Shown here: piece by piece, positions 7,297 through 57,047 of the stretch
How the letters are laid out: each line of letters begins with the position of its first letter
Numbering within the stretch: position 1 is the first letter of the stretch
DNA from: an uncultured Candidatus Saccharibacteria bacterium
GTDB taxonomy: Bacteria; Patescibacteriota; Minisyncoccia; Phycocordibacterales; PALSA-1337
Length of the DNA stretch: 64,000 nucleotides
NCBI GenBank assembly: GCA_964558375.1
Contig: CAZLCD010000003.1
Location: 155 to 64,154 of the forward strand
Reading direction: 5' to 3'
Translations under genes and position numbers: made by a program
Notes under the pieces: generated by a model
Database searches by the model: none
The model's input: the letters and a program-made list of their open reading frames with translations, nothing else
Told to the model about the DNA's origin: nothing

Positions 7297-7373
7297 GTTG
7301 ATATAATACAACGTTTTATGTACTATTAAAAGATAAGTTATTAATAAATATGTATTTTCAATCAATAAAAGTC

Positions 7374-15471: not shown

Positions 15472-15479
15472 TAGCGGAG

Positions 15480-15830: not shown

Positions 15831-15853
15831 TCTATCCATAAAGAACTTTATAT

Positions 15854-31844: not shown

Positions 31845-32900
31845 ATGAAAGCACTCTATATATATTCTGGAGATAGATCACAAAAGTTTAAAGGAGTTGC
31901 TGGCGTTGACTATCCTGATACACAGTTCTACGGAATGAATCATCTATATCAATTTGGAATAGATGCAGAATACAAAGAATTTGAAACATATCCTCTAGGA
32001 AGATTTCTTGCAAAGATATTTGGCTTTAGAATAAAACATTTGTTCATGTACTTTGTAGCTCGTAAATATGATGTCGCTTTCGGTATTTCCATAATGTACA
32101 TGCTTTTCTGGAAGAAGTTTCTTCGTTCAAAAACAAAGTTTATAATATTCAACTCGGTACTAAATAGAATGTTCATAGTTCACAAGGAAGGGTCTTTTAA
32201 GAGAAAAATGTTGTTATGGTTCCTAAAAGAAGTAGATGGAATTGTATTTCTAGCCAAGGTTCATATGGATCGTGTATTGGAAAGAGCTCATTTTTTGAAA
32301 GACAGAGTATTTTTTGTGCCAATGGGAGTGGATTCAAAATACTACAAACCAATCTATGAAGACAGGGAAGACTTCATTTTGTCTGTAGGTAGGGACAATG
32401 CTAGAGACTACAAAACAGTTATTGAAGTTGCTCGAAAAATGCCTAATGAACAATTTCATATAGTATGTCTACCTAGAAATATACAGGGAAATAAAGATAT
32501 ACCATCAAATGTTCATGTCCATTTCAATATTCCTCTTGCAGAGCTACAAAGAATGTACAAAAAAGCTAAGGTTTTGCTTCTCATAATGCATAATGATACA
32601 TATATCGATGGTTCAGATTCTTCTGGTCCGACCGTACTACTCGAAGCTATGGCTATAGGTTTACCGATAATATCAAGTAAGAAAGAATACCTAAAAGACT
32701 ATATAGATCATGGAAAAGATGCTCTAATTGTCGATTTTTACGATACTGATGATATAGTAGAGAGTATTAAAAAGCTTTCAGATGCATCTTTACGAAAGGA
32801 GATGGCAATGAATGCAAGAAAGAAGGTTGATTCAGTGTTTAATACAAAAGAGATGGCGCGAGGTATTTCTGAAGTATTCAAAAAAGTATATGCAAAATAA
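31845..32900 (+). CDS. glycosyltransferase (GT4-like)
   Basis: C-terminus GSDSSGPTVLLEAMAIGLPIISSKKEYLKDYIDHGKDALIV. Confidence 0.55.
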   Translation: MKALYIYSGDRSQKFKGVAGVDYPDTQFYGMNHLYQFGIDAEYKEFETYPLGRFLAKIFGFRIKHLFMYFVARKYDVAFGISIMYMLFWKKFLRSKTKFIIFNSVLNRMFIVHKEGSFKRKMLLWFLKEVDGIVFLAKVHMDRVLERAHFLKDRVFFVPMGVDSKYYKPIYEDREDFILSVGRDNARDYKTVIEVARKMPNEQFHIVCLPRNIQGNKDIPSNVHVHFNIPLAELQRMYKKAKVLLLIMHNDTYIDGSDSSGPTVLLEAMAIGLPIISSKKEYLKDYIDHGKDALIVDFYDTDDIVESIKKLSDASLRKEMAMNARKKVDSVFNTKEMARGISEVFKKVYAK

Positions 32901-33828
32901 TCAATACAACATACCAGTTCTCTCAAAAGATATATATTGGGGTAAGATTCCTGAACAAGAGTTGGGGGATATTATAGATCTAATAGAAGAAAAGGGATTT
33001 TCTGTGTTTGATTCAAAGATGCAAAAGAAACTAGATTTCACTTATGATGAAGACCGTGCAGATTGGAGAGTAAATATCCCATTAACAAAAGATTCAACAA
33101 TACTAGATATTGGTGCTGGTCTTGGACGTATATCAATTCCCCTAGCTAGAGTTTCTAAAAAAGTTGTTGCTTGTGATACATCTCTTTCGAGAATGCGTTT
33201 TCTAAAGAAAAGAGCAGAGGCTGAAGGACTTTCTAATATAGAAGTAATGGTTGCAGATGTTTATAATCTTCCATTCAAAGAAAATACTTTTGATTTGATA
33301 GTTATGAATGGTGTTTTGGAATGGGTTGGTCTGACTGATCTATACAAAGACCCTAGAGAAGCTCAGATAAAGAGTTTGGAGATATGTAAGAAGCTATTGA
33401 AGAAAGGCGGATATCTGTACGTTGGTATAGAGAATAGATGGGCTTTGGTATACACAAGAGCTGCAGATCATGGAGGTTTGTTGTATACAAGTTATATGCC
33501 AAGATTTCTAGCTAGCATCTATTCACGTATCAGAGGAAAAGGATCATATAGAACATATACATATTCAAAGAAAGGATATGAAAATGTTTTTAAAGAAGCT
33601 TCGTTTGAAAATAAACCTGATTTCTATCTCCTTTACCCAGGATACAATCTTCCTCGAACTATAATTCCATACAGTAATCTGAATGCATTTAGATTTATGA
33701 TAAGTTCATTCAAGAGATCTAAAAACACCATCATAAACAAGGTTGTATCTCTCTTGGTTAAATCTTCAATATTCCTTCGAATATACCGATTCGTATTCTT
33801 CAGCTTTGGTATAATTATAAAAAAATGA
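32890..33828 (+). CDS. class I SAM-dependent methyltransferase
   Basis: Motif I ILDIGAGLGRISIPLA and acidic motif II VVACDTS, then DLIVMNGVLEW. Start trimmed to the internal Met (MQNNQ…). The track start 32812 overlaps the upstream gene by 89 nt. Confidence 0.65.
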   Translation: MQNNQYNIPVLSKDIYWGKIPEQELGDIIDLIEEKGFSVFDSKMQKKLDFTYDEDRADWRVNIPLTKDSTILDIGAGLGRISIPLARVSKKVVACDTSLSRMRFLKKRAEAEGLSNIEVMVADVYNLPFKENTFDLIVMNGVLEWVGLTDLYKDPREAQIKSLEICKKLLKKGGYLYVGIENRWALVYTRAADHGGLLYTSYMPRFLASIYSRIRGKGSYRTYTYSKKGYENVFKEASFENKPDFYLLYPGYNLPRTIIPYSNLNAFRFMISSFKRSKNTIINKVVSLLVKSSIFLRIYRFVFFSFGIIIKK

Positions 33829-34706
33829 TTTCTACTATAGAAAAAGTATTAAGAAAGGAGATGAATATCTCTCCAAAAACTAATTTAAGCTATCTTAAAT
33901 ACAGCACTCCGATTTCTGGTAAGGGTGTCGGATGCAAAGTTATATTTTTCGTATTTGTTGGAGAAAATAAGATGCCAAGTTTTGTTGTTAAGTCTGTAAG
34001 AACAGAAATTAATGCTTTTAGCATACGAGAAGGATACGAGAATATGTCACTTCTTAATAACCTTACAAAAAATACAGAATTTGATTCCATGTTTCCAAAG
34101 ATGATACATATCCATGATGATAATGGTGGTATTTTTACAATAGAAACTATGTGTTCAGGTTTAAAGATGGGTAGAGACGAGAATATAGATAAAGTATTTA
34201 AAATATATACCTCTTTTTCTAAACATCTTCTCTCTTCTTCTAAAGATAAAATCCTGTTAAACTTTGAGTATGGCAAAAAAATACTAGAAAGTTTAAATGG
34301 TTCTAAGGAAGATATAGATAACCTCTCTAAATATCTCTTAGGGTTATGGAATAACCTCAATGTTGAACTACCTTCCATATATCAGCACGGAGATCTAACT
34401 ATCGATAATATATTGTTGGATAGAGGAAATGTGAGAATGATAGACTGCGATACTTTTGGAAATATTAGAGTTCCAGGATTCGATATCTCCCATCTATCAA
34501 CGAGAAAAAAACTATTTAACTCTCTAGATAGACTAAATACATATTTTAAGGATATGAATATTAGTTATACGGTAGATAAAAAGATATTGTCCATATATTT
34601 CCTTCATGAACTCTACATTAAAAAAGACTATATCCTACTCAAAAAAAATTCTGAAGAGGTAATTAAAGATTTTGAAAATATATTAAAGATATATAACCTT
34701 AACTAA
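33825..34706 (+). CDS. phosphotransferase-family kinase-like protein (APH/choline-kinase fold)
   Basis: YQHGDLTIDNILLDRGNVRMIDCDTFG matches the HGDxxxxN…IDxD catalytic loop plus DFG-like pattern. Confidence 0.45.
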   Translation: MISTIEKVLRKEMNISPKTNLSYLKYSTPISGKGVGCKVIFFVFVGENKMPSFVVKSVRTEINAFSIREGYENMSLLNNLTKNTEFDSMFPKMIHIHDDNGGIFTIETMCSGLKMGRDENIDKVFKIYTSFSKHLLSSSKDKILLNFEYGKKILESLNGSKEDIDNLSKYLLGLWNNLNVELPSIYQHGDLTIDNILLDRGNVRMIDCDTFGNIRVPGFDISHLSTRKKLFNSLDRLNTYFKDMNISYTVDKKILSIYFLHELYIKKDYILLKKNSEEVIKDFENILKIYNLN

Positions 34707-35895: not shown

Positions 35896-36818
35896 ATCTA
35901 AAAGGTATAATATATTACATACTTCACTACACTGGATTTAACTATATCTACAGTCTTTTCCTCAACAAAAAACTCTTCATTGTTATGTATCACAGTATAG
36001 GGAACAAAGAGAATGCGGATCGACTATTAAATCATCTATACAGTCACATATCAGTAGACTCTAAGAAGTTTGAAGAACATATTGAATACCTTAAAAAAAG
36101 TGGTCATACATTCATATCGTTTAAAGATATATCTAGAATAAAGTCTGATAACATAAAGAAACCAACTATCATATATTTCGATGATGGATTCAAAGATGTT
36201 CTTGAAAATGCTCTGCCAATACTCGAAAAAAATAATATCCCAGCTACAATTTTTGTAGTTACAGGTATTCTAGATAAGACTGAGATGCTATGGACTATTC
36301 TATACAAAGAAGCTTTAACAAAACAGAATATTTCTCTAGAAAAACAAGCTGAAATGATAGAGAAAATAAAGACTGGTACAGAACAAGATAGAATAAATGT
36401 AATGAATCAATTTTCTTTAAAAGACTATCAATACCTTTTTGATATATTCCTTTCTTGGGATGATCTGAGAAATATATCTAAAAGAAATGTTCACACAGCT
36501 TCTCATAGTGTTTCTCATATGCGAATGAATGAGCTATCAGAATCAGACTTCAAAAAAGAAATAGCTGTTTCTAAGAATCGCACTGAGGAAGAATTGAGAG
36601 AAAAAGCTATATCATTCTCATTCCCATATGGTAGAGGAAGTGAAGAAATGGTTAAGGAGTTGTATAAAACTGGATATTCATATGTTGTATCGAAGGGTTG
36701 TGGAATAAATGAAGTAAATGAGACTAAAAATATATATCTAAAGAACATTTCACCTAAACCAAATGATTCTCTAATGATGTTTAAGTTAAGACTATACTCT
36801 CTAAATATAAACAAATGA
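35892..36818 (+). CDS. polysaccharide deacetylase (NodB-homology domain, CE4)
   Basis: IIYFDDGFKDVLENALPILEKNNIPATIFVVTG (DD metal-binding motif 1) and TASHSVSHMRM (H-x-x-H-like motif 2). Confidence 0.7.
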   Translation: MNLKGIIYYILHYTGFNYIYSLFLNKKLFIVMYHSIGNKENADRLLNHLYSHISVDSKKFEEHIEYLKKSGHTFISFKDISRIKSDNIKKPTIIYFDDGFKDVLENALPILEKNNIPATIFVVTGILDKTEMLWTILYKEALTKQNISLEKQAEMIEKIKTGTEQDRINVMNQFSLKDYQYLFDIFLSWDDLRNISKRNVHTASHSVSHMRMNELSESDFKKEIAVSKNRTEEELREKAISFSFPYGRGSEEMVKELYKTGYSYVVSKGCGINEVNETKNIYLKNISPKPNDSLMMFKLRLYSLNINK

Positions 36819-37579
36819 TTACTGTAAAGAATCATCTTTTCCTAAAAACAGCCACTGTAATTTTTGAGGACGATCAAATAACTCCTCTGTTTAAAACTGG
36901 AAAATATTCTTCAATAGTTGCTGTGTCATACAAGAAGATGGATATTCCAAAGTTTGTTATGTACTCAAAACCAACTTTGTTAATAGATTTAACTAGAACC
37001 GAAGATGATATAATGGCAGGGTTTAATGATACTACTCGTAATGAAATACGAAAGACATTCAAGGATAATAGACTTAAGTTTGTAATAAAAGATTCTCCAG
37101 ACAAAGAATCCTATGAGATGTATAGAGAATTTGAATATTCTCAAGGAAGAGCCCCTGTAAGTATGAATGTTCTAAAGGAATCATTCTTTCTAGGTATTTC
37201 ACTCGACGATAAGTTAATTTCTGGTATATATGTGACTAAGAGTGATCCATATCTAAGAATTAGATCAATCTTCTCTAAGAGATTGAAGGTGGAAGATAAA
37301 GAAATATATAAACTAATAGCATATTCAACAAGAAGATTGATATGGGAAGCTTGTTCTTGGGGAAAGAAAGAGGGATATATTTCTCTCGATATGGCCTCTG
37401 TAAATATAAACAATCCAAAGACTGAAAGCATCGCTAGATTTAAGATGTCTTTTGGTAAAGATCTTGTAGATGAATATACTTATATATATAAATCTCCATT
37501 ATTTTCTTTTCTAGAGAAAATGGTTAGAATTAAGCTTCTCTTGAGAAAAGCTATATTCAAAATCAGAGAACTCTTTTAA
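36815..37579 (+). CDS. FemAB-family-like GNAT-fold transferase (aminoacyl-tRNA-dependent transferase-like)
   Basis: TTRNEIRKTFKDNRLKFVIK resembles the FemAB KTR.NIRKAEK.GV block. SIARFKMSFGKDLVDEYTY resembles the FemAB ..RFK..FGG block. Only 254 aa, so a single-domain version. Confidence 0.4.
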   Translation: MITVKNHLFLKTATVIFEDDQITPLFKTGKYSSIVAVSYKKMDIPKFVMYSKPTLLIDLTRTEDDIMAGFNDTTRNEIRKTFKDNRLKFVIKDSPDKESYEMYREFEYSQGRAPVSMNVLKESFFLGISLDDKLISGIYVTKSDPYLRIRSIFSKRLKVEDKEIYKLIAYSTRRLIWEACSWGKKEGYISLDMASVNINNPKTESIARFKMSFGKDLVDEYTYIYKSPLFSFLEKMVRIKLLLRKAIFKIRELF

Positions 37580-38701: not shown

Positions 38702-40132
38702 ATGCTTACTGTAATCGGAAATATCAGAATAAATTCCCTCTCACATCTTGAACACTTTAAGAATTCATTAAAATCTTTTGATGGAGCGAGTGATAACTGG
38801 CTAATAAATATCCGTGGAACTTTCCGTGATGAAGCAATTACTTTCCTAAAGAGTGAGTTAGGTAATAAACTAGTACCCTTTAAACTACTGGATGAATCTA
38901 GAGGGTGGATGGTTAATTCCCTTGAAATGCTCAAGGAGGCTAAGTATGACTATGTTTTAGTTTGGAATGAAGATCATCTAAACATTGCATCAGCAAAAGA
39001 TTTGGTTGATGTAGTTTCAGATATGAAAAAGGTAAAAGCTGACTACCTCTGCTATAGTTGGTGGCTTCTGGGAAAGTCTAGAGAAGCTTTTGATAAGTTG
39101 GGAAATAAAATAGGGTTTAAAAAAGAAAAATACATTAGTCACTTAAAACTAGATCAAGATAAGTGGAAAATGATACGAGATACTGGATATCCATATTTCA
39201 TAATATCCATGTGTGGAATTTTTAGAAAAGAATTTCTTCAGTCTATGTGGAAAAAAGACCAAAGAAGATTGCCGTTTTTCTTCAAAAAGATGGTATTCAA
39301 ATTCTTTGGATTGTTCACTAAGCTTAAAATTATGTCTCCTTATGGACACAAGGAGTTGTTTGAGAAGATAAATAGATTTGTATTTAGAAACAAGATTCGT
39401 AAATATCCGACGTATCTTCCTTTTGAAATGGAAAAGGGTCCAGAGAGAGTAGATATGTTACCTCTAAACTTTGCCTTCTCTAACAAAGAAATATTTGCTT
39501 GTATTGACGATAATGTGAATATGGAAGGATACTCATTGAGTGATAGAGGGTTGTATAAAAATTCAAAGAACAATAGACCTATAAAGGAACACCTAGACAC
39601 CATACTTTCAGAGATAAGAACTGTTCTTTCTAAGGTAGATGAAAAACAGGTTGATATGTTTGTTAAGTATATACTTTCTGCAAGAAGAATTGTTGCTTCT
39701 GGGGCGGGAAGAGTTGGAATGGCTGTGAAGGGTTTTGTTATGAGACTAAAGCATATGGGACTTGATGCATATATTCTAGGTGACGCTAACGTTCCCTCGA
39801 TAAAGCCACAAGATCTTTTCTTGGTGTGTTCTGGATCTGGTGAGACTCAGACAATATATGAACTAACTTTAATTGCTCAGAAAAATCAAACACCAATCGC
39901 TCTTGTAACAGGAAATCCTGAATCTCGCATGGGAAAGATTGCTAATACAATAGTTGAGATTAAAGCCCCTTCAAAAGTTAAAAAGGTTGATAACTTTGTA
40001 TCAATACAACCTATGACAACTCTAAACGAACAATCCCTAGCTATATTTTTTGATGCAATAGTTTTGAAGTTGATGGATGAACTGAACGAAACACACGAGA
40101 CTATGTGGGAGAGACATTCTAATTTGGAATAA
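38702..40132 (+). CDS. two-domain protein: uncharacterised N-terminal domain (~300 aa) plus C-terminal SIS (sugar-isomerase) domain
   Basis: C-terminal SIS motifs RIVASGAGRVGMAVKGFVMRLKHMG…LFLVCSGSGETQTIYEL…ALVTGNPESRMGKIANTIVEI, as in GmhA/KpsF/PHI-type phosphosugar isomerases. Confidence 0.6.
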   Translation: MLTVIGNIRINSLSHLEHFKNSLKSFDGASDNWLINIRGTFRDEAITFLKSELGNKLVPFKLLDESRGWMVNSLEMLKEAKYDYVLVWNEDHLNIASAKDLVDVVSDMKKVKADYLCYSWWLLGKSREAFDKLGNKIGFKKEKYISHLKLDQDKWKMIRDTGYPYFIISMCGIFRKEFLQSMWKKDQRRLPFFFKKMVFKFFGLFTKLKIMSPYGHKELFEKINRFVFRNKIRKYPTYLPFEMEKGPERVDMLPLNFAFSNKEIFACIDDNVNMEGYSLSDRGLYKNSKNNRPIKEHLDTILSEIRTVLSKVDEKQVDMFVKYILSARRIVASGAGRVGMAVKGFVMRLKHMGLDAYILGDANVPSIKPQDLFLVCSGSGETQTIYELTLIAQKNQTPIALVTGNPESRMGKIANTIVEIKAPSKVKKVDNFVSIQPMTTLNEQSLAIFFDAIVLKLMDELNETHETMWERHSNLE

Positions 40133-40133
40133 T

Positions 40134-40826
40134 ATGAAGAAGAATATAAAAACTAAAAAGAATAATACTTATGGACTAGCTGCATCTCTAGTATGTGCAG
40201 ATATGTTGAATATAAGAGGAGAGATAGAGAAACTTGAAAGAGGTGGAGTAGAATATATCCACTTTGACGTAATGGATAATCAATTTGTACCAAGATTCGG
40301 ACTTCATCCAGAAATTCTTCAATCAATAAAGAAAATAACTAAGATTCCTGTAGATGTTCATCTAATGGTTGATGATCCAGAGAATGCAATAAAGGTATTT
40401 GCAGACGCTGGAGCAGATATTATAGTAGTTCATGAAGAATCAACAGCTCAACTTCATAGACTAATAAAACTAATAAAAGCTACTGGAAAGAAAGCTGGAG
40501 TTGCTCTAAATCCTGCTACAAGCCTATCAACCCTAGACTATATTCTAAACGATATAGATCTTGTAATGCTAATGGCTATTAATCCTGGAATACTAGGTCA
40601 TAAATTGATTCCTGAAATGATGGACAAGATATCTGCGTTAAAGCTTAAACTTAGAAATTATCCCAATATGATAATAGAAATTGATGGAGGGGTAACACCT
40701 GAAAGTGCTAAAGAAATGGTTAAAAGAGGAGCAAATCTGCTAGTTTGTGGTACTTCAACTATATTTAAACCAGAGGGTGATGTTGATGTAAAGATAAAGG
40801 AATTGAAGAAAATTCTTGATAAATAG
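40134..40826 (+). CDS. rpe: ribulose-phosphate 3-epimerase family protein
   Basis: LAASLVCADMLNIRGEI…YIHFDVMDNQFVPRFGLHP…DVHLMV…MAINPGILGHKLIP…IEIDGGV…CGTSTIF follows the Rpe signature (SILSAD…HxDVMDGxFVPN…DVHLMV…NPGFGGQ…VDGG…GSAIF) throughout. Confidence 0.8.
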   Translation: MKKNIKTKKNNTYGLAASLVCADMLNIRGEIEKLERGGVEYIHFDVMDNQFVPRFGLHPEILQSIKKITKIPVDVHLMVDDPENAIKVFADAGADIIVVHEESTAQLHRLIKLIKATGKKAGVALNPATSLSTLDYILNDIDLVMLMAINPGILGHKLIPEMMDKISALKLKLRNYPNMIIEIDGGVTPESAKEMVKRGANLLVCGTSTIFKPEGDVDVKIKELKKILDK

Positions 40827-40850
40827 CAATAGAAAGAGTAATGTAAACAC

Positions 40851-42056
40851 ATGAAAGTCTTAATCCCGATAGATGAGACAAAGTTCCATTTCGGTGAACT
40901 AACTAAACATACAAACCCTGGTCTAATTCGTGTTGGAAAGAAGCCAATAATTTCATATATTATAGAATCATATCCAAAAGATACTGAGTTCATTTTAGCC
41001 CTAGACTACAAAAAAGATCATATAAAAGATTTCCTAACTCTCGTATATCCTAAACAAAGTTTCAAGATAATCTCGCTATCAGAAATAGATTCTTTTTCAA
41101 AAGAACCTTTTCTATATCATCCAACAAACTTAATTAGAGATATTAAAGCTCTACATAAAGCACGTAAGAATACTTATGATAAGTTTGATAATCTTGATAA
41201 GGTAGATGAGTCACTCTTCTTCTTTGAAGATTTCGCTATAAAATTCTTTGCGGATGGTAGAAAAATAAAGAGTCGTGTGCAGAGAGGGAAGATGTTGGGG
41301 AATCTGGTGCCAAAAACTCTACAGGTAAAAAATAATTTCTATAAATACGCATATATAAAAGGAGATACATATTCTGATGTAGCTACTCCACATAATTTCT
41401 CACAATTCCTGCACTGGGCAAAGGTAAAACTATGGAAGCCGAAGAAACACCTTTCAGAAAAAGAATTCAATAGTGTCTGTTTTGATTTCTATCAAACAAA
41501 GACAAAGGAAAGAATTGCTAAGTTTCTAGATTCTCATAATATTTCAGATTCAGAAATGATAATAAATGGAGAGAAGATTCCATCTATTGAAACTCTGCTA
41601 TCTCAAATTGATTTTGGTCATATTTCATCAGGAATCCAGACACAATTTCATGGAGATCTGATTCTTGAAAACATTCTTCTAGATAAGAAAGAATATACAC
41701 TTCTAGATTGGAGACAAGATTTTGGAGGAGTATTGCATGCTGGAGATATGTACTACGATCTAGCTAAACTTTATCATAATCTAGTTGTTAACCATGACAT
41801 AATAAGTAAGGATAGGTTTGTTATAGACGTTAAGAAGAACAGAGTTATATGTTCAATAGAAAGAAAACCTCATCTCGTTGTATGTGAGAAAACTTTTGAA
41901 GAATTTGTAATATCTCAGAAACTAGACTTAAGAAAGATAAAAATACTAAGAGCTATAATATGGCTAAATATGTCTCCATTACACCATCATCCATTCAGTC
42001 TTTTTCTTTACTACTTCGGGAAGTATAATCTTTGGAAAGCCGTTAATGAAAAATAA
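40851..42056 (+). CDS. fusion protein: degenerate sugar-phosphate nucleotidyltransferase-like N-domain plus APH/choline-kinase-like C-domain (LicC-LicA-like architecture)
   Basis: N-terminus VLIPIDETKFHFGELTKHTNPGLIRVGKKPIISYIIESYPKDTEF is a clear paralogue of the standalone nucleotidyltransferase at 42580 but lacks the G-x-G-(T/S)-R loop. C-terminus FHGDLILENILLDKKEYTLLDWRQDFGG is a kinase catalytic loop. Confidence 0.55.
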   Translation: MKVLIPIDETKFHFGELTKHTNPGLIRVGKKPIISYIIESYPKDTEFILALDYKKDHIKDFLTLVYPKQSFKIISLSEIDSFSKEPFLYHPTNLIRDIKALHKARKNTYDKFDNLDKVDESLFFFEDFAIKFFADGRKIKSRVQRGKMLGNLVPKTLQVKNNFYKYAYIKGDTYSDVATPHNFSQFLHWAKVKLWKPKKHLSEKEFNSVCFDFYQTKTKERIAKFLDSHNISDSEMIINGEKIPSIETLLSQIDFGHISSGIQTQFHGDLILENILLDKKEYTLLDWRQDFGGVLHAGDMYYDLAKLYHNLVVNHDIISKDRFVIDVKKNRVICSIERKPHLVVCEKTFEEFVISQKLDLRKIKILRAIIWLNMSPLHHHPFSLFLYYFGKYNLWKAVNEK

Positions 42057-42578
42057 ATGAAAAAAAAGATAATAAAAAACTTAATATTAGATGTTGACGG
42101 AGTCTTCACTGATGGTCAGTTTCACTATACCACAGAAGGCAAGACTGCAAAGATATTTGGTCCAGATGATAACGATGGTCTAGCTCTAATAAGACCATAT
42201 CTTAATATAGTTGCTGTAACAGGTGACAAGAAGGGGTTTGAGATCACAAAGAAGAGAATTGATGATATGAAAATTCCTCTTTTTCAAGTCAGTACTTTTG
42301 AAAGAATACATTGGATAAAGTCACAAGGATACAATCTTTCAGAAACTGTATACATGGGAGATGGAATATTTGATGCTATGGTTTTTGATAAGGTTGGATA
42401 CAGTATTGCTCCAGCAAATGCATTCCCAGCAATAAAGAAATACGCTGATCATGTTACGAAACTTAGTGGAGGACATGGGGCTGTTGCTGAAGCTTGTCTG
42501 CATCTTCTAGAAAAGTTCTTTAAGAAAGTAGATATGCTTAATTTGAAAATACAGGAAGGAGAGTGGGGAAATAAATAA
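42057..42578 (+). CDS. HAD-superfamily IIIA phosphatase, KdsC-like (sugar-acid/sugar phosphate phosphatase)
   Basis: LILDVDGVFTDGQFHYTTEG (DxDG motif I), VTGDKK (motif II region), YMGDGIFDAMVFDKVG (motif III), and GGHGAVAEACLHLL as in KdsC. 173 aa. Confidence 0.7.
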   Translation: MKKKIIKNLILDVDGVFTDGQFHYTTEGKTAKIFGPDDNDGLALIRPYLNIVAVTGDKKGFEITKKRIDDMKIPLFQVSTFERIHWIKSQGYNLSETVYMGDGIFDAMVFDKVGYSIAPANAFPAIKKYADHVTKLSGGHGAVAEACLHLLEKFFKKVDMLNLKIQEGEWGNK

Positions 42579-42579
42579 T

Positions 42580-43302
42580 ATGAAATATAAAGTACTCATC
42601 ACTACATCAGGTACAGGTTCACGTTTGGGAGAACTGACAAAGAATACAAATAAGGCTATGGTTTTAATTAATGGAAGACCAACCATTAAATATATCTTTG
42701 ATTCATATACAAAAGATACTACTTTCGTAATAACTCTAGGATTTCTAGGTGATCAAGTTAAGGATTTTCTTCTAAAGAGATATCCAGAATATAACTTTGA
42801 ATTTGCTGTTGTAGATAAGTATATAGGAGATGGAAGTAGTCTTCTATACTCAATGCTATGTGCTAAAGACTATCTACAATGTGCATTTATCTTCCATGCA
42901 TGTGACACTATCGTTACAGAAAAGATTCCAGAACCAATAGAGGATTGGGTAATTGGGTATGTCATAGATCCTGCAACAACTACGATGGATGTAAAACAAT
43001 ATCGAAGTCATGATGTTAAGGATGGGTATCTAGCTAAGGTTAATGACAAGGGGGTAATGAAGTTCAATTCAATTCATATTGGTATGACTGGAATATATAG
43101 CTACCAAACTTTTTGGAAAGTCGTAGAAGAGATGTATAAAAATGATCCAACGAATCAGGCTCTAGGAGATGTTCCTGTTATAGAAAAACTTATGGATTTA
43201 GGAGTAAGGTTTAAATGGATTCCTTTTAAAAATTGGCTTGATACTGGTAACCCCCAAGCACTTAAGGAGACTGAACAATTTATTATAAAAAGTAGTTTAT
43301 AA
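42580..43302 (+). CDS. sugar-phosphate nucleotidyltransferase (LicC/RmlA/GlmU N-domain family)
   Basis: VLITTSGTGSRLGELTKNTNKAMVLINGRPTIKYI matches the G-x-G-T-R-L…T…PK…L nucleotide-binding signature. Confidence 0.65.
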   Translation: MKYKVLITTSGTGSRLGELTKNTNKAMVLINGRPTIKYIFDSYTKDTTFVITLGFLGDQVKDFLLKRYPEYNFEFAVVDKYIGDGSSLLYSMLCAKDYLQCAFIFHACDTIVTEKIPEPIEDWVIGYVIDPATTTMDVKQYRSHDVKDGYLAKVNDKGVMKFNSIHIGMTGIYSYQTFWKVVEEMYKNDPTNQALGDVPVIEKLMDLGVRFKWIPFKNWLDTGNPQALKETEQFIIKSSL

Positions 43303-43312
43303 TAACTCATGT

Positions 43313-44200
43313 ATGACATACAAATCTCTAAAGACTAGAATAAAGGATATAACTAGAAAATATGCTCCATTGATATATCCTTTTGTATATAAAGCGTCTC
43401 TAAGATTTTCTAATTCTAAAATTGAGAAAAGTAGGATAGAGAAATACTCACGATTTGTAAGACCTGGATTCTATCCATTCGAACTTGGGAAAATTAAATT
43501 CGATATGAAGCTCGATCCAGCTAATGGGGGAGTTGATATGGATATCTTTGCTGATAAATACTATGAATCAAAGATACTTGAGTTAGTAGGTTCTCTTTTG
43601 AAAAAGGAAGATACTTTCATAGATATTGGAGCTAATATTGGTCAACATTCTATGTATGCTTCATATTTCTGTAAACATGTATATAGTTTTGAACCAGTAA
43701 AGAAACTTTTCAATCAGTTTAATGAATCAATCTCGAAGAATGTAATTTTAAATATATCTACATATAACTACGCTTTAGGAAATGAGAAAAAGAGAATGCC
43801 AATATATTCAAATGGAGTCAGTATGGCAGCTTCTTCTATAAATACAGTTAAGAACAAGAAGTATATACAAGATATACAAATATTAAGATTTGATGATGTA
43901 TATGAAAAAATGAATATTGGAAAAGCTGAATTAATTAAAATAGATGTGGAAGGGTATGAGTTAGAAGTCCTTTTGGGGGCAAAGGAGTATATCAATAAAT
44001 ATAAACCAAAGATTCTTCTAGAATTCAGTCCATATTTCTATAGAAGAATAGATGCAACAATATCAGACAAGATTATTTCTTTCCTCGTCGACTCTAAATA
44101 TAAAGTATATGACTTAGGAGAATATAATGATAAGAGAATTCCCATATTTAAATTAAAGGATATAAGTAATACAGATCAGGTTAATCTTTTGTGTGAATAA
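43313..44200 (+). CDS. FkbM-family SAM-dependent methyltransferase
   Basis: FIDIGANIGQHSMYAS (motif I, FkbM type) and LIKIDVEGYELEVLLGA (the FkbM-family DxEGxE block). Confidence 0.65.
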   Translation: MTYKSLKTRIKDITRKYAPLIYPFVYKASLRFSNSKIEKSRIEKYSRFVRPGFYPFELGKIKFDMKLDPANGGVDMDIFADKYYESKILELVGSLLKKEDTFIDIGANIGQHSMYASYFCKHVYSFEPVKKLFNQFNESISKNVILNISTYNYALGNEKKRMPIYSNGVSMAASSINTVKNKKYIQDIQILRFDDVYEKMNIGKAELIKIDVEGYELEVLLGAKEYINKYKPKILLEFSPYFYRRIDATISDKIISFLVDSKYKVYDLGEYNDKRIPIFKLKDISNTDQVNLLCE

Positions 44201-44263
44201 TAAACGGCACTTTTAGATATAAGTCAATATATCGTTATCTGTATAAATAAGTACAATTACTTC

Positions 44264-45415
44264 ATGAAAATATTTAATGATTATATCGAAAGAAAAAAGA
44301 GTATTATCACTAACAAAGAAGGTTTGGAACATCTATATACATTCAAAAACTTCCCAATTTTTTTTGGTTGCGTAGACTCCCCACAAGATGAGGATTTGTT
44401 TGCTAATATGGAATGGGCTATTGATAAGGAGACGGGAGTAATACAACTTACTAAACTAATACCTCTGGATATTTTGTACCAGGCTCAACATGTTGATGGA
44501 TATGGACCAACTTGGCAACAGTATTATAAAGATCTCGCTGATTATATAGTTAAATATAATCCAGAATTAGTTCTAGAAATAGGTGGTGGACAAGGTCAAT
44601 TAGCTACATTTGTTACAGATAAATTAAAAAATTTAAATTGGACTATAGTTGAACCAAACTCTTGGCATGAGGGAAATGACAGAATTAAGACAGTTTCTGC
44701 TTTTTTTGATAAAAACTTTTTGTACGATAAAAAAGTAGACGCTGTTGTTTTTTCACAAGTACTTGAACATGCTTTTGATCCTAATGAATTTATCTCCGCT
44801 ATCTCTAAGTTTCTAAAACCAGGAGGAAAACTTATATTTGCTTACCCACAACTTGAGGTGTGGCTTAAAAATAAATTTACTAATGCTTTGAATTTTGAAC
44901 ATACAATGTTCCTAACCGATTATTTTGTAGATTTTATCCTAGAATCTAATTCATTTAAAATTTTAGATAAATATACTTACAAAACACACAGTCATTTTTA
45001 TGTAGCTGAACGTCTAGGTGTAGATACTCCAGCTGTTAATCTTGCTAAACTTGATAATAAATATGAATCATACAAAGAGATATTTAATGATTTTATTAAA
45101 TATCATCAAGATATGGTTGATGATATCAATAAAAAAATTGAAAATGCAAAAGACCCAGTGTATTTATTCGGTGCTCATATATTCTCAGAATACCTACTTG
45201 CTTTCGGTCTTAATGATAAAAAGATAGTTTCTATACTAGATAATAGTCCCACTAAGAATAAAAAAAGATTATATGGAACTAGATTTGTTATAGAATCACC
45301 AAAGATTCTAGAAGGTAAGGGTAAGGTTAATCTAATACTGAAAGCTGGAATATATAATGAAGAGATCAAGAAAGACATATTACAAAATATTAACAGTGAA
45401 GTGGAATTTTGGTAA
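44264..45415 (+). CDS. class I SAM-dependent methyltransferase with C-terminal extension (sugar C/O-methyltransferase-like)
   Basis: LVLEIGGGQGQLATFV (motif I), VFSQVLEHAFDP, and ISKFLKPGGKLIF (motif III), plus a C-terminal ~130-aa domain as in three-domain sugar methyltransferases. Confidence 0.6.
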   Translation: MKIFNDYIERKKSIITNKEGLEHLYTFKNFPIFFGCVDSPQDEDLFANMEWAIDKETGVIQLTKLIPLDILYQAQHVDGYGPTWQQYYKDLADYIVKYNPELVLEIGGGQGQLATFVTDKLKNLNWTIVEPNSWHEGNDRIKTVSAFFDKNFLYDKKVDAVVFSQVLEHAFDPNEFISAISKFLKPGGKLIFAYPQLEVWLKNKFTNALNFEHTMFLTDYFVDFILESNSFKILDKYTYKTHSHFYVAERLGVDTPAVNLAKLDNKYESYKEIFNDFIKYHQDMVDDINKKIENAKDPVYLFGAHIFSEYLLAFGLNDKKIVSILDNSPTKNKKRLYGTRFVIESPKILEGKGKVNLILKAGIYNEEIKKDILQNINSEVEFW

Positions 45416-50289: not shown

Positions 50290-52581
50290 ATGAAAAATAC
50301 CACAAATACAATTATTAAATACAGCATATTTACAATCATTTTTATAATTTCTTTCCTCCCCCTTTACGTCGCCAACCCATTATTCTTTCCGTTCATCACT
50401 GGCAAGGCTTTCGTCTTTAGAATACTAGTAGAACTAGCTTTCGCTCTGTGGCTCATACTTCTTATACGTGAAAAGGGAACTACGGTCGCTGGTACTGAGA
50501 GAAGTGTGGCACCAAGGATAAATGCTATCACTATAGCCATAACAGCTTTCGTTTCAATTATCTTTGTCGCCGACCTCCTAGGTCTAAATGTCTTGCGAAG
50601 CTTCTGGTCAAACTTCGAGAGAATGGAAGGATGGATAACCCTAGTACATCTTTGGGGATATTTCATTGTTCTATCTAGTATTTTTGGCTCCAGTTACTTT
50701 TCGGGCTCCACTGAAAATTCCGAAGCTCATAAAAATTGGCATCGATTCTTCAATGTGGTGCTTATCGCTGGCTTTATCACGGCTATGTACGGCCTATTCC
50801 AATTCTTCGGTTGGGCAGACATTCATCAGGGCTCTAGTCGTGTAGATGCCTCACTAGGAAACTCAGCTTATATGGCGGTTTATATGATCATAAACGCATT
50901 TCTAGCAGGGTATATGGCTTTCGATGCTTATATAAAAAGGTTAAAGTTTTCACTGCTATTCTTTATCTACTCTATCCTTGCCATTTTCTTCTCCTTCATA
51001 ATGTTCCAGACAGCAACTAGAGGAACTATCCTAGGTTGGGTTGCAGCTATCCTCGTTTCTCTGGCTATTTATGCGGTTTTTGGTAAAAATAAAAAGGGCG
51101 GCGTTTCCACAAAATCAAGACTTATAGCTTCAGGTGCAATAGTTCTGGTTTTGCTTATCGGAACCCTCTTCTATTTTAATAGAGATGCGCAGTGGATAAA
51201 GAACAATCAGGTATTAGGACGTATCGCAACCATATCTATTTCCGATACCAAGACTCAAGCTCGAGGATTCATCTGGCCTATGGCACTCAAAGGTGTATTT
51301 GAAAGTCCAAAAACCGCGATCATAGGTGTAGGTCAAGAAAACTTCAATTATATTTTTAACAAAAACTATGATCCGAAGATGTGGGCACATGAACAATGGT
51401 TCGATAGGGCACACAGTGTCTTTATCGACTGGCTTGTAGCTGGAGGGCTCATAGGATTTATATCGTACCTTGCTCTCTATCTCTTTGCTCTTATCTATAT
51501 TATCAAAAGTCACTTGCATATTGGTCAAAAATCAATACTCATAGGACTTTTGGTTGGTTATGGAATACATAACATTTTCGTTTTCGACAATCAGACTAGC
51601 TATATAATGTTCTTCATAGTTTTGGCTTTCATACATTCTTTTGTGCCTGGTAAGGTTCCAAAGTTCTTACACGATACCAAGTCTCATGTTTCAGAGGATT
51701 ATATAACAGTAAGAGATTATATATTTGTGCCAGCTATCATTATCCTTTTGGGTTGTTCACTATATTTTATCAATATTCGTCCAATACAGGCTAATACCGG
51801 ACTTATAGCCGCTCTACGTTCTTGTTCAGATGCCAAAACCTTGTCTACAAAGACTTTTGAAAAAGTATTTGCTCTAGATCAAACCGTAGCCAATCAAGAA
51901 ACCTTAGAACAGCTCTATTCTTGCTCTGGCAATGTACTACGTAGCCAATTGCCACAAGAAAAGAAAATCGAATTCTACAATTTAACTAAGGCAGAAATAG
52001 AAAAACAGGCCTCAACTACTCCAAACGACGCTCGACTATATATTCTCGCTGGAAACTTCTTTGATTCTATAGGAGATTGGTCCACAGGTACTGCATATTT
52101 AGAAAAAGCTCATAAACTCTCTCCAACCAAGCAAAGCATAGCTTCAGAGCTCGCGCTCAACTACTTAAATATAGGGAAAACAAAAGAATCCATAGAAATA
52201 ATGGAGCAGGCTTACAATTCTGATACAGAGAATTACAATGCTCGAACTTCATATATCGTAACCCTGATCTATACAGGAGAAGAAAAGAAAGCTATAGAAC
52301 TATTTGGTAAAAATCTAGAATATTTCGAAAATGAGCAAGTGATCAATGCCTATGTGACTTTGAAACAATACGATAAAGCGATAGCTCTATACAAATCAAT
52401 CATGTTAAAGAATCCAAATGAACAGAAGAATTATTCTGCCCTAGCTTCTATCTACCTTATGAATGGTCAAAAGGCAAAAGCAATTGAGACTATAAAAATC
52501 GCTGGGGATAAGTTTCCAGAAATCAAAAAGCAAGCAGATGCGATAATCAAGCAGATCGAGGAGGGGAAGGTAGGGAATTAA
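50290..52581 (+). CDS. O-antigen ligase/Wzy_C-domain membrane protein with C-terminal TPR repeats (candidate pilin O-oligosaccharyltransferase, PglL/TfpO-like)
   Basis: N-terminal ~450 aa polytopic. Wzy_C-like blocks …MFQTATRGTILGWVAAIL… and …HEQWFDRAHSVFIDWLVAGGLIGF… (compare the aHN.yL..l.E.G..G block of O-antigen ligases). Large periplasmic loop. C-terminal ~250 aa of TPR-like helical repeats. Confidence 0.6.
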   Translation: MKNTTNTIIKYSIFTIIFIISFLPLYVANPLFFPFITGKAFVFRILVELAFALWLILLIREKGTTVAGTERSVAPRINAITIAITAFVSIIFVADLLGLNVLRSFWSNFERMEGWITLVHLWGYFIVLSSIFGSSYFSGSTENSEAHKNWHRFFNVVLIAGFITAMYGLFQFFGWADIHQGSSRVDASLGNSAYMAVYMIINAFLAGYMAFDAYIKRLKFSLLFFIYSILAIFFSFIMFQTATRGTILGWVAAILVSLAIYAVFGKNKKGGVSTKSRLIASGAIVLVLLIGTLFYFNRDAQWIKNNQVLGRIATISISDTKTQARGFIWPMALKGVFESPKTAIIGVGQENFNYIFNKNYDPKMWAHEQWFDRAHSVFIDWLVAGGLIGFISYLALYLFALIYIIKSHLHIGQKSILIGLLVGYGIHNIFVFDNQTSYIMFFIVLAFIHSFVPGKVPKFLHDTKSHVSEDYITVRDYIFVPAIIILLGCSLYFINIRPIQANTGLIAALRSCSDAKTLSTKTFEKVFALDQTVANQETLEQLYSCSGNVLRSQLPQEKKIEFYNLTKAEIEKQASTTPNDARLYILAGNFFDSIGDWSTGTAYLEKAHKLSPTKQSIASELALNYLNIGKTKESIEIMEQAYNSDTENYNARTSYIVTLIYTGEEKKAIELFGKNLEYFENEQVINAYVTLKQYDKAIALYKSIMLKNPNEQKNYSALASIYLMNGQKAKAIETIKIAGDKFPEIKKQADAIIKQIEEGKVGN

Positions 52582-52682: not shown

Positions 52683-53144
52683 ATGAAGAAAACATATTTA
52701 GAAAAAGGTTTTACATTGATTGAATTGCTAGTGGTTATTGCTATTATCGGTATTTTGTCATCAGTGGTGTTGGCGAGTTTGAACACAGCTCGAAATAAGG
52801 GTGCAGATGCTGCAGTAAAAGCAAACTTGTCTGGTATTAGATCACAGGCAGAGTTGATTTATGATACTGCTGTTCCAAATTCTTACGCAACTATCTGTAC
52901 AGATACAAATGTTGTTAATGCAATAAATGCTGCAAAGACAGCTGCTGGAGTTTCATCTGCTACCAATGTTACTTATGGTACAGCTGGTGGTGCAGCTACA
53001 GCTACTTGTCATGCTAACGGTGCAACCGGATGGGCTGTAGAAGTTCCATTAAAGTCCGCAGGATTCTTCTGTGTAAACAATTCTGGTACATCTTCAACAA
53101 CAGCTGCAAGTACTCTTGGTGCTAGTGAAACAGATTGTAACTAG
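52683..53144 (+). CDS. pilA: type IV pilin (probable major pilin; class III signal peptide)
   Basis: MKKTYLEKG|FTLIELLVVIAIIGILSSVV shows the prepilin leader, cleavage G, F+1, E+5 and a hydrophobic helix. C-terminal region has paired Cys and is Ala/Thr/Ser/Gly-rich. Followed by its own intrinsic terminator. Confidence 0.75.
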   Translation: MKKTYLEKGFTLIELLVVIAIIGILSSVVLASLNTARNKGADAAVKANLSGIRSQAELIYDTAVPNSYATICTDTNVVNAINAAKTAAGVSSATNVTYGTAGGAATATCHANGATGWAVEVPLKSAGFFCVNNSGTSSTTAASTLGASETDCN

Positions 53145-53170
53145 TGTATATTGTTTGGTTGGTTTGATTT

Positions 53171-53203
53171 AAAAAAACTACGTAGAATATACGTGGTTTT
53201 TTT
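53171..53203. terminator. bidirectional intrinsic terminator AAAAAAA-CTACGTA-gaata-TACGTGG-TTTTTTT
   Basis: 7-bp stem (one G-U), 5-nt loop, flanked by A7 and T7, 27 nt after the pilA stop. Confidence 0.55.
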
Positions 53204-53253
53204 GTTGACTTATTAGATTGTTATATAATTATATTAAGTTTATAATATATAAT

Positions 53254-53742
53254 ATGAAAAAAATAAATAAAGGTTTTACATTAATAGAATTGCTAGTAGT
53301 TATTGCTATAATAGGAATATTATCATCTGTTGTATTATCGAGTCTAAGTACTGCTCGTGTTAAAGGTAGGTCTGCAGCACTTAAGGCAGAAATGGATAGT
53401 TTTAAGAAAACAGCTCAACTTTTCTATGATGATAATAACAATTCATATACAGGAATGTTTTCAAATGATCCTACTATTTTAGCACTGGTAGCTACAACAA
53501 CCACAGATGTTGCAATTCAGAATATATTAATATCTCTAGAACAGAAGTCAGGTAATTTTGCTCTGTATGGTCTTGTGTCTGATAATGCTTACGCACTATA
53601 TACAAGGTTACCAAGTGCAACCAATCTTGACAGTCTTGATCCTGTAGATATTTGGTGTATTGACAGTGAGGGAAAGTCTGGAAATCCTAGTTCAGTAGCT
53701 GTAGATCAATTTACCACTACTCCAGCCAGTGTTTGTTGGTAA
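53254..53742 (+). CDS. type IV pilin
   Basis: MKKINKG|FTLIELLVVIAIIGILSSVVLSSL, with a C-terminal disulfide loop (C…C-W end). The track start 53218 adds 12 unlikely residues. Confidence 0.7.
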   Translation: MKKINKGFTLIELLVVIAIIGILSSVVLSSLSTARVKGRSAALKAEMDSFKKTAQLFYDDNNNSYTGMFSNDPTILALVATTTTDVAIQNILISLEQKSGNFALYGLVSDNAYALYTRLPSATNLDSLDPVDIWCIDSEGKSGNPSSVAVDQFTTTPASVCW

Positions 53743-53771
53743 AGGATAAACAATTCTCCAATTACATTACA

Positions 53772-53797
53772 AAATCCTTCGAAAGAGAGGGATTTTT
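53772..53797 (+). terminator. weak hairpin plus T-tract (AAATCC-N12-GGATTTTT) after the second pilin gene
   Basis: 6-bp stem with a large loop followed by T5. Judged a weaker terminator than the one after pilA. Confidence 0.3.
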
Positions 53798-53885
53798 GGT
53801 ATTAGGTGTAATCTTTACCAAATCTTTATTATTTTTTAATCTTTCCCCCAATCCCCAACTCTCTATACACCAAAGCATTTTTTAC

Positions 53886-53894
53886 TGCTATAAT
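53886..53894 (+). promoter_or_regulatory. extended -10 TGCTATAAT, 6 nt upstream of ATG 53901 (leaderless configuration)
   Basis: Perfect TGnTATAAT. No room for a Shine-Dalgarno sequence before the start codon. Confidence 0.4.
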
Positions 53895-53900
53895 TAGCCT

Positions 53901-54410
53901 ATGAAAAATACTAAAAAAGGATTTACTTTAATTGAGCTTATGGTTTCGATTGCGATTATAGGAATTTTGACTGCCATTATCACCACCAACTTTACTTCAA
54001 GCAAAGCCAAATCAAGAGATGCAAAGAGAGTTTCAGATCTTGCGCAGATACAGCTGGCGTTGTCTCTATATTTTGATAAATTTAATTCTTATCCAGGTGT
54101 AGGTACTGGTCTTGAAGCTGGTGGTGTAACAAGCGGGGCAACTTCTCCTTACAACAGTATTCCTTTTAGTAACTACATTGCTGTGATACCAAAAGATCCA
54201 AATGGAACTGTGTATTCGTATGTGGTAGATGGATCTAAAACAGACTATATTTTGAGGGCCACTTTAGAAACCAACTCCACAGCTCTTAGTGATGATATTG
54301 ATAATACAAATAGACCATCGTGGGCAACAACTGTTTCCTTTGGTGGAGGTAGTGGAATACCTTGCGATGATACTTCTACACCGCTTTACTATTGCGTATC
54401 CCCAAGATAA
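53901..54410 (+). CDS. type IV pilin/pseudopilin
   Basis: MKNTKKG|FTLIELMVSIAIIGILTAII prepilin N-terminus, with a C-terminal Cys pair. Confidence 0.7.
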   Translation: MKNTKKGFTLIELMVSIAIIGILTAIITTNFTSSKAKSRDAKRVSDLAQIQLALSLYFDKFNSYPGVGTGLEAGGVTSGATSPYNSIPFSNYIAVIPKDPNGTVYSYVVDGSKTDYILRATLETNSTALSDDIDNTNRPSWATTVSFGGGSGIPCDDTSTPLYYCVSPR

Positions 54411-55803: not shown

Positions 55804-55804
55804 T

Positions 55805-56473: not shown

Positions 56474-56480
56474 AAAATTT

Positions 56481-57044: not shown

Positions 57045-57047
57045 AGT

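Follow-up and report, generated by a model that had tools for sequence, protein, structure and literature searches.

What does a run of seven closely spaced genes in the genome of an uncultured Candidatus Saccharibacteria bacterium make, and from which precursor? The genes occupy positions 38702-45415 of a 64,000-nucleotide stretch of contig CAZLCD010000003.1 (assembly GCA_964558375.1), referred to here as the window, and a preliminary account made from the letters of the DNA (the sequence-only reading) had taken them for an operon encoding a new nucleotide-sugar activation pathway that starts from a pentulose or pentose phosphate. The analysis described here indicates that the genes belong to a widespread and undescribed cassette, which probably serves to build a rare hexose or hexulose in nucleotide-activated form, de novo and from a ketose phosphate of central metabolism, fructose-6-phosphate being the likeliest. 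The sugar, possibly C-methylated, is probably destined for a cell-surface or pilin glycan, and its exact identity lies beyond the reach of sequence. The enzyme combination had been thought not to correspond to a described pathway, and no published account of it was found in a literature search that was thin on subscription journals; the families identified support a new nucleotide-sugar pathway whose enzymes all come from families already known.

The seven open reading frames (ORFs) were confirmed on the sequence, all on the + strand and separated by stop-to-start gaps of 1, 24, 0, 1, 10 and 63 nt in gene order, in keeping with the short spacing noticed earlier. Every domain call of the sequence-only reading was upheld by hidden Markov model (HMM) searches with Pfam and NCBIfam, and several could be made more specific. 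The features of the cassette, in which NTase stands for nucleotidyltransferase and PHI for 6-phospho-3-hexuloisomerase, are as follows.

38702-40132, + strand: ORF1, fusion of a GT-A-like domain and a PHI domain
38702-39580, + strand: ORF1 N-terminal domain, residues 1-293, GT-A-fold, GT2-like glycosyltransferase domain
39596-40132, + strand: ORF1 C-terminal domain, residues 299-476, SIS domain of the PHI (HxlB) type
40134-40826, + strand: ORF2, Rpe-family ketose-phosphate epimerase of a cassette-specific subfamily
40851-42056, + strand: ORF3, NTase remnant and choline-kinase/APH-fold kinase
40851-41135, + strand: ORF3 residues 1-95, decayed remnant of a sugar-phosphate NTase domain
41136-42056, + strand: ORF3 residues 96-401, choline-kinase/APH-fold small-molecule kinase
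42057-42578, + strand: ORF4, KdsC-like (C0-cap HAD) sugar-phosphate phosphatase
42580-43302, + strand: ORF5, stand-alone sugar/alcohol-phosphate NTase
43313-44200, + strand: ORF6, FkbM-family methyltransferase, accessory
44264-45415, + strand: ORF7, 383-aa homologue of TcaB9/MtmC/KijD1-type sugar C-methyltransferases

Conserved linkage and two exchangeable front ends

Homologues of the ORF3 kinase are numerous: a word-indexed search returned 2344, mostly NTase-kinase fusions of ~525 aa, a full-length profile matched 775 cluster representatives at 50% identity (E <= 1e-30), and 296 carriers turned up among the species representatives of GTDB. The carriers are mostly Patescibacteria and also include DPANN archaea, Bacteroidota, Chlamydiae, PVC (Planctomycetes-Verrucomicrobia-Chlamydiae) bacteria, a SAR11 single-amplified genome, Arcobacter and the cultured Marinomonas colpomeniae SM2066, the taxon labels of those carriers that are metagenome-assembled genomes (MAGs) being unreliable. 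The nearest relative is a MAG labelled Candidatus Saccharibacteria. A search of plasmids gave remote matches only.

Gene content was surveyed in 81 non-redundant loci, translated in all six frames and searched with the window proteins, the DNA available extending 8-10 kb to either side of each match, and the counts given below refer to the 59 that have 2.5 kb or more of flanking DNA on each side (full-flank loci). The conserved core consists of PHI, Rpe, the kinase with or without its NTase domain and the HAD phosphatase, often joined by the 383-aa methyltransferase and the GT-A protein. Because this arrangement recurs in dozens of distant genomes it lies far beyond chance, and its recurrence across Patescibacteria and elsewhere, which the sequence-only reading had proposed as a check, bears out the idea of a dedicated, conserved activation cassette of the nucleotide-sugar type, with isomerase/epimerase, kinase, phosphatase and NTase logic.

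Of the 59 full-flank loci, 37 have PHI and Rpe genes immediately before the NTase-kinase on its upstream side, so that the Rpe gene is not the stray housekeeping gene that the sequence-only reading had feared it might be. Another 21 loci carry a GatZ/KbaZ-like protein instead, 17 of them with a small cupin of the phosphomannose isomerase (PMI) type; elements of the two front ends are never found together (0/59) and a single locus has neither. In a neighbour-joining tree of the kinase domain the GatZ+cupin loci form one deep clade and occupy at least four separate positions nested among PHI+Rpe loci from the candidate phyla radiation (CPR), and for six of them the nearest neighbour is a PHI+Rpe locus. 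Domain fusions connect the parts with one another (GT-A-PHI, GT-A-cupin, NTase-PHI, NTase-methyltransferase, NTase-kinase-GatZ-like, GatZ-like-NTase-kinase and cupin-cupin-NTase-kinase), those of GatZ-like and cupin domains to the NTase-kinase being found in P0255, P0213 and P0234. On this pattern of replacement, PHI+Rpe and GatZ-like+cupin look functionally equivalent. The cupins show PMI type II-like motifs (KPWG, QYHxxKxE and HR), and their family profile, compared with the PDB, matched only generic cupins and small 'PMI' proteins.

Enzymes of the cassette

ORF1 had been described as a SIS isomerase. The SIS assignment is correct and can be narrowed to PHI, but a 293-aa N-terminal domain was missed, which has a GT-A fold and an invariant W-x-E-D-H (DXD-like) motif, as expected of GT2-like GT-A glycosyltransferases. 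The C-terminal domain scores 183.2 bits with TIGR03127, the PHI equivalog model (cut-off 160), and the structure of Bacillus subtilis YckF/HxlB (1m3s) aligns to its full length (E 3e-35). The KdsD/GutQ models reach only ~20-25 bits on the same domain, and the GmhA model is absent from the NCBIfam matches of ORF1, which give no GmhA-type (SIS_2) signal. Going by its family, the domain would be expected to catalyse the canonical interconversion of fructose-6-phosphate and arabino-3-hexulose-6-phosphate. Homologues of the GT-A domain are often found in the cassettes, either as a 376-aa protein after the methyltransferase (hhalign 99.9%) or fused to PHI or cupin. The GT-A-PHI fusion of one locus (L040, 2144-3898) has an extra segment of ~114 aa between the two domains; a cupin was suspected there, and a Pfam search of this linker gave no match.

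ORF2 lies above the equivalog cut-off of the Rpe model TIGR01163 (221.1 vs 212.6 bits) and well below that of AlsE (174 vs 271 bits), and comparison with the PDB likewise places it nearer to Rpe proteins (171 bits) than to the AlsE structure 3ct7 (133 bits); the HxlA model gives only 19 bits. The catalytic residues H43, D45, H76 and D184 and the Met cushion are invariant in the cassette Rpe proteins, whereas the substrate-loop motifs differ from those of Escherichia coli Rpe, FVPN being replaced by FVPR[FYL]G and NPGFGGQ by NPG[IV][LV]GH in members from both CPR and Bacteroidota. These proteins are 51-83% identical to one another across CPR and Bacteroidota, whereas their identity to E. coli Rpe is 36% and that to AlsE 33%. 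On these comparisons they are a subfamily of their own, a further sign that the Rpe gene is not a stray housekeeping copy.

The sequence-only reading had pointed to a pentulose or pentose phosphate as starting substrate. In such a pathway ORF2 would carry out the canonical interconversion of ribulose-5-phosphate and xylulose-5-phosphate and the SIS domain would make a pentose-5-phosphate (arabinose, xylose or lyxose), to be activated as an NDP-pentose (NDP, nucleoside diphosphate), possibly locked in the furanose form. The Rpe score and the retention of all catalytic residues would suit this, as would the KdsC-like phosphatase, enzymes of that type belonging to a pathway derived from ribulose-5-phosphate; SIS enzymes of the KdsD type, to which ORF1 shows weak matches, isomerise ribulose-5-phosphate. 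However, those matches are far outscored by PHI, the substrate loops of the cassette Rpe proteins are non-canonical, and the GatZ-like and PMI-type cupin proteins of the exchangeable front end belong to hexose-6-phosphate families, from which a D-pentose is not readily reachable. PHI, GatZ/KbaZ and PMI-type cupins all act canonically on hexose-6-phosphates, which makes a hexulose-6-phosphate, in particular fructose-6-phosphate, a likelier starting point than a pentulose; a pentose product is very unlikely.

A search of the PDB with the single sequence of ORF3 gave chance-level matches only, and the fold of the kinase was then taken from structure prediction; comparison of predicted structures gave choline kinases and LicA as the best matches, and the anomeric kinases NahK, MTR kinase and maltokinase have the same fold. 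The motifs HGDxxxxN and D-W-R-Q-D-F-G-G are invariant in the kinase family. The claim of a dead NTase domain in ORF3 is substantiated by the alignment of residues 1-95 with the N-terminal part of the NTase domain in the ~525-aa homologues: the signature TSGTGSRLG has become PIDETKFHFG, which destroys the GxGxRL motif, and ~135 aa have been deleted. In ORF5 the TSGTGSRLG motif is intact and the alignment of the protein with the fusions spans their entire NTase domain, its NTP_transferase signal by HMM being weak. Among PDB structures LicC (1jyk, E 2.3e-7) matches it best, and all NCBIfam equivalogs stay far below their cut-offs (24 vs 300 bits for HddC). ORF5 presumably takes the place of the decayed domain. 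The split form, a remnant-kinase with a separate NTase, is also seen in the closest relative and in the 50%-identity cluster P0218, and additional stand-alone NTase paralogues are common next to intact NTase-kinase fusions, which suggests that the split architecture arose by duplication of the NTase followed by decay of the fused copy. One homologue in the representative library (P0281, 724 aa) carries an N-terminal GIY-YIG and NUMOD3 homing-endonuclease module, either an endonuclease insertion or a fusion produced by gene calling.

The resemblance of the kinase to choline kinases and LicA, and of the NTase to LicC, could be taken at face value, in which case the pair would make CDP-choline, CDP-ethanolamine or another CDP-alcohol as a head group, and the isomerase and epimerase would be housekeeping genes of the pentose-phosphate or ribulose monophosphate (RuMP) pathway that happen to lie beside it. 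This is barely credible, since one of the two front ends is linked to the kinase in 58 of the 59 full-flank loci and sometimes fused to it, it is accompanied by a sugar-phosphate phosphatase and a sugar C-methyltransferase, and the cassette Rpe proteins resemble one another across phyla far more than they do E. coli Rpe.

The phosphatase ORF4 retains the HAD motifs DxDGV...GDGxxD, as read from the sequence, and scores 81.5 bits with the KdsC model TIGR01670 (cut-off 106.95) and 77.3 with PRK09484 (cut-off 208), below both cut-offs, the KDN-9-P phosphatase model giving 69.7 bits. HAD proteins of this type adjoin the kinase in 53 of the 59 full-flank loci. The FkbM-family methyltransferase ORF6 (TIGR01444, 111 bits) has a very different distribution: an FkbM gene was detected in one of the 59 (phmmer, bit score >= 60), and among relatives only L003 and L008, and weakly L016, have one. 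FkbM is thus essentially confined to the close kin of the window and is an accessory outside the conserved core.

ORF7-type methyltransferases are present in 36 of the 59 full-flank loci, with both front-end variants. ORF7 had been called a three-domain sugar-methyltransferase-like enzyme; the sugar methyltransferase assignment stands, and the protein is now better described as a homologue of the C-methyltransferases TcaB9, MtmC and KijD1, which shifts the expected product towards a branched sugar. In Pfam it matches Methyltransf_23 and, weakly, a C-methyltransferase C-terminal domain. Compared with the PDB, the family profile matches MtmC (4rv9) over positions 48-363 of 377 (E 2e-12), TcaB9 (4e-9) and KijD1 (3e-7). 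The catalytic residues E224-H225 and H181 of TcaB9 align to E212-H213 and H169 of ORF7, which are invariant in the family; the CxxC pair of the TcaB9 Cys4 zinc site aligns to residues other than Cys, and for the N-terminal zinc domain only a faint Methyltransf_13 match appears, in the L083 fusion of NTase and methyltransferase. ORF7 possibly C-methylates an NDP-keto sugar, and the L083 fusion is suggestive in this respect.

A candidate pathway and its relation to known systems

A scheme that accommodates both front ends can be proposed, in which what the enzymes act on and in what order, which nucleotide is used, where methylation takes place and what accepts the sugar are all inferred. PHI and the Rpe-like ORF2 would form an isomerase/epimerase pair that generates a rare hexulose-6-phosphate. 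In the preferred version PHI would convert fructose-6-phosphate to D-arabino-hex-3-ulose-6-phosphate, and ORF2 would epimerise C4 of this compound, which is equivalent to C3 of ribulose-5-phosphate, to yield D-lyxo-hex-3-ulose-6-phosphate. The ORF4 phosphatase and the ORF3 kinase, in either order, would then relocate the terminal phosphate to the site at which the nucleotide is to be attached, ORF5 would form the NDP-sugar in place of the decayed ORF3 domain, the TcaB9-like ORF7 would add a methyl group to the carbon beside the keto group, and the GT-A domain of ORF1 would transfer the unit to a glycan of the surrounding cluster, possibly a pilin O-glycan. In the alternative front end a GatZ-like 4-epimerase would act first (GatZ/KbaZ proteins epimerise fructose-6-phosphate at C4 to give tagatose-6-phosphate; PMC11907403), after which the cupin, by a 2,3-keto shift, would arrive at the same D-lyxo-hex-3-ulose-6-phosphate. 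This compound is the sole two-step meeting point of the two front ends that could be constructed. It is possible, if doubtful, that the product is a nucleotide-linked, C-methyl-branched hex-3-ulose, made by two non-homologous enzyme pairs that converge on D-lyxo-hex-3-ulose-6-phosphate with their steps in opposite order, and that surface or pilin glycans are decorated with it in many Patescibacteria and DPANN archaea as well as in a scattering of free-living bacteria.

Several observations are consistent with the hex-3-ulose scheme. Hexulose-6-phosphate is an analogue of ribulose-5-phosphate. Hexulose-6-phosphate synthase (HPS) was not found among the Pfam-scanned neighbours (23587-52578, the other parts of the window being unscanned), and as the canonical reactions of PHI and Rpe are unconnected without HPS, one of the two enzymes must take a non-canonical substrate; the changed capping-loop motif of the cassette Rpe proteins supports a 3-hexulose. 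Such a product would explain the presence of a C-methyltransferase, which needs an enolisable ketone, in a cassette that has neither dehydratase nor oxidoreductase. It would also explain the removal of the terminal phosphate, by which O6 would be freed for ring closure or the sugar made available for phosphorylation elsewhere.

Other points weigh against this proposal. The product is deduced from family membership and the logic of gene replacement, the kinase tree was built by neighbour joining and carries no support values, and the two front ends could supply different epimers to a tolerant kinase. We know of no precedent either for an Rpe-family enzyme acting on a hexulose-6-phosphate or for a 2,3-keto shift by a PMI-type cupin. 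Similarity of the GatZ-like proteins to their namesakes is weak, with a score of 23.5 in L081, the M. colpomeniae SM2066 locus whose GatZ-like and cupin genes lie at 6409-7917, against a Pfam cut-off of 26.7 that only P0255 exceeds (32.5), and their profile covers just the N-terminal ~100 aa of the GatZ/AgaZ structures. The ORF7-type methyltransferase is missing from ~40% of loci, within the flanks examined; it does not have the zinc site of TcaB9, and even with its dyad conserved it may prove to be an O-methyltransferase. The mode of linkage and transfer of an NDP-3-hexulose is a further weak point.

These considerations leave room for a route to an NDP-aldohexose, the main rival, that resembles heptose activation more closely. 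ORF2 would then be an allulose-6-phosphate 3-epimerase of the AlsE type, converting fructose-6-phosphate to D-psicose-6-phosphate, and the SIS domain an aldose-ketose isomerase giving D-allose-6-phosphate or D-altrose-6-phosphate, from which the kinase would make a 1,6-bisphosphate, the HAD enzyme would remove the 6-phosphate and the NTase would form NDP-allose or NDP-altrose; GatZ and cupin would lead to NDP-talose or NDP-galactose. Methylation would come later, with ORF7 possibly an O-methyltransferase or acting once an enzyme encoded elsewhere had oxidised the sugar. Aldose-ketose isomerases are indeed in the majority among SIS enzymes and PMI cupins, the order isomerase-kinase-phosphatase-NTase has a precedent in GmhA/HddA/GmhB/HddC, the kinase shares the fold of the anomeric kinases named above, and ORF2 has appreciable AlsE scores. 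Yet ORF2 is nearer to Rpe, and the SIS domain passes the equivalog cut-off for PHI and that of no aldose-ketose family model. Furthermore, the two front ends would yield different sugars, epimeric at C3 in one case and at C4 in the other, although they replace each other beside near-identical kinases, methyltransferases and GT-A proteins, and a TcaB9-type C-methyltransferase with an intact dyad would be left without a keto substrate. An NDP-aldohexose is therefore considered unlikely.

In the GDP-D-glycero-alpha-D-manno-heptose route, GmhA, HddA, GmhB and HddC act as isomerase, kinase, phosphatase and NTase in sequence, and the parallel that the sequence-only reading drew between this logic and a cassette built from other enzyme families holds. 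In both, a ketose phosphate would be isomerised, a kinase and a HAD phosphatase would relocate the phosphate, and an NTase would form an NDP-sugar for a surface glycan. The cassette differs in having a PHI-type SIS protein rather than GmhA, a choline-kinase/APH kinase rather than the GHMP kinase HddA, a KdsC-like phosphatase rather than GmhB and a LicC-like NTase rather than HddC, and it adds an epimerase, a C-methyltransferase and a fused GT-A domain; judged on these families, it works like the heptose pathway and is not a member of it. A heptose variant proper, in which sedoheptulose-7-phosphate would be converted to an NDP-heptose or NDP-heptulose of unusual configuration, would draw on the same overall logic and on the precedent of GmhA as a SIS enzyme, but no GmhA-type (SIS_2) signal, GHMP kinase or GmhB was detected with Pfam and NCBIfam. 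In addition, the closest relative (L003) has a canonical-looking trio of NTP_transferase, GHMP kinase and HAD protein, similar to HddC, HddA and GmhB, inserted after the methyltransferases (14547-16741 of that locus) in addition to the cassette, suggesting that the two pathways are distinct, and a heptose product is highly improbable. The window does not contain this trio.

Several other known systems come close. The C-terminal domain of ORF1 is a bona fide member of the PHI family, as is HxlB of the HxlA/HxlB pair of the RuMP pathway, although its partner is an Rpe-family epimerase rather than HPS and the context is glycan synthesis rather than formaldehyde fixation or pentose supply. Pairing, and often fusion, of a kinase with a sugar- or alcohol-phosphate NTase is shared with LicA/LicC, the fused LicCA, AmgK/MurU and Fkp; unlike the LicA/LicC, AmgK/MurU and Fkp salvage systems, the cassette is fed by a de novo front end and includes a phosphatase, and the sequence similarity is remote. 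ORF7 resembles the NDP-hexose 3-C-methyltransferases TcaB9, KijD1 and MtmC in its near-full-length match, its Glu-His dyad and His181 equivalent and its C-terminal C-methyltransferase domain, whereas it lacks their Cys4 zinc site, and the cassette has no 4,6-dehydratase that would provide an NDP-4-keto-6-deoxy substrate; the known enzymes come from actinomycete antibiotic pathways, in contrast to the cell-surface glycan setting of ORF7 in CPR and other bacteria. Formation of rare hexose phosphates from fructose-6-phosphate by ketohexose-6-phosphate chemistry is also known from GatZ/KbaZ (PMC11907403) and from AlsE/RpiB of the E. coli allose pathway. In E. coli these enzymes are catabolic or cryptic, whereas the cassette homologues, of which the GatZ-like proteins are very divergent, appear wired to a kinase, a phosphatase and an NTase for biosynthesis.

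Nucleotide-sugar pathways set which monosaccharides a cell can display, and the cassette occurs in hundreds of species, notably in ultra-small Patescibacteria and DPANN archaea, which attach to hosts by way of their surfaces. If the interpretation is correct, the cassette would provide a new activated sugar, possibly a branched keto-sugar, and would reveal new activities in the PHI, Rpe, GatZ and PMI-cupin families as well as a clear non-orthologous displacement of a two-enzyme module. Were the product a hex-3-ulose, it would represent the first use of the type of intermediate found in the RuMP pathway, 3-hexulose-6-phosphate, as a glycan building block. The pathway is directly testable, given a cultured carrier in M. 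colpomeniae SM2066 and enzymes that are all small and soluble. PHI and Rpe annotations in CPR genomes, in turn, need not mean RuMP or pentose-phosphate metabolism.

The surrounding glycan cluster and related loci

The description of the seven genes as an operon was not borne out, either as a bounded transcription unit or as a natural set. Close spacing continues upstream, where a gap of 4 nt leads to a GT4 gene, and downstream, where a gap of 9 nt leads to a GT2 gene, ORFs 1-7 being a segment of a longer co-directional array (~23587-48902) within a glycan cluster of ~25 kb, and the conserved core is smaller than seven genes, FkbM being accessory. Between 33 and 51 kb, promoter-like sites were fewer than in shuffled sequence and set no boundary, and a terminator scan of the same region gave no convincing terminators from which operon limits could be placed. 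The larger features surrounding the cassette are the following.

23587-52581, mixed strands: enclosing glycan-biosynthesis cluster, identified from Pfam scans
50290-52581, immediately before the pilin genes: Wzy_C/TPR, O-antigen-ligase-like gene

Pfam identifies in the cluster GT4 and GT2 glycosyltransferases, a GDP-mannose 4,6-dehydratase, an SDR protein, an AsnB-like amidotransferase, several methyltransferases, a second APH-like kinase, a deacetylase, a Wzx flippase on the - strand and the Wzy_C/TPR ligase-like protein. A type IV pilin region (52683-57581) follows directly, with three pilins that begin with a KGFTLIELL motif at the N-terminus, several genes resembling minor pilins and, at 54392-55186, a prepilin peptidase. 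The Wzy_C protein may be a pilin O-oligosaccharyltransferase of the PglL/TfpO type, and its position next to the pilin genes agrees with the surface or pilin glycan context suggested earlier.

The second APH/choline-kinase-like protein of the cluster (33825-34706, 293 aa) has an HGDLTIDN motif and a Pfam APH match of E 1.2e-4; at the matching position L003 encodes a 296-aa protein with no Pfam match, the correspondence being one of position only. Likewise by position only, an ORF of 254 aa (36815-37579), which lies between the polysaccharide deacetylase and a GT4 gene and has no match in Pfam, corresponds to ORFs of 254-266 aa, also with no Pfam match, in L001-L003. The methyltransferase ORF listed at 32812-33828 overlaps the preceding glycosyltransferase gene by 89 nt (region 31845-33828), and its true start probably lies further downstream.

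Relatives of the cassette proteins also occur in records filed as viral. An unannotated 66-kb record obtained by single-cell amplification (L090, Marine virus AG-345-E15, MH319741.1), a putatively viral contig, carries the form of the cassette with a cupin, an NTase-kinase that is 46% identical to P0018 and a GatZ-like protein. In Enterococcus phage 9183 (L091, MT939241.1, 29756-32956) a small HAD hydrolase is followed by a full-length NTase-kinase-like protein of 22% identity. In 86-kb Enterococcus phages this HAD and NTase-kinase-like pair sits in a nucleotide-metabolism module (thymidylate synthase, dUTPase and thymidine kinase), near a 'nucleotide sugar synthetase-like' gene, and it may be linked to DNA modification.

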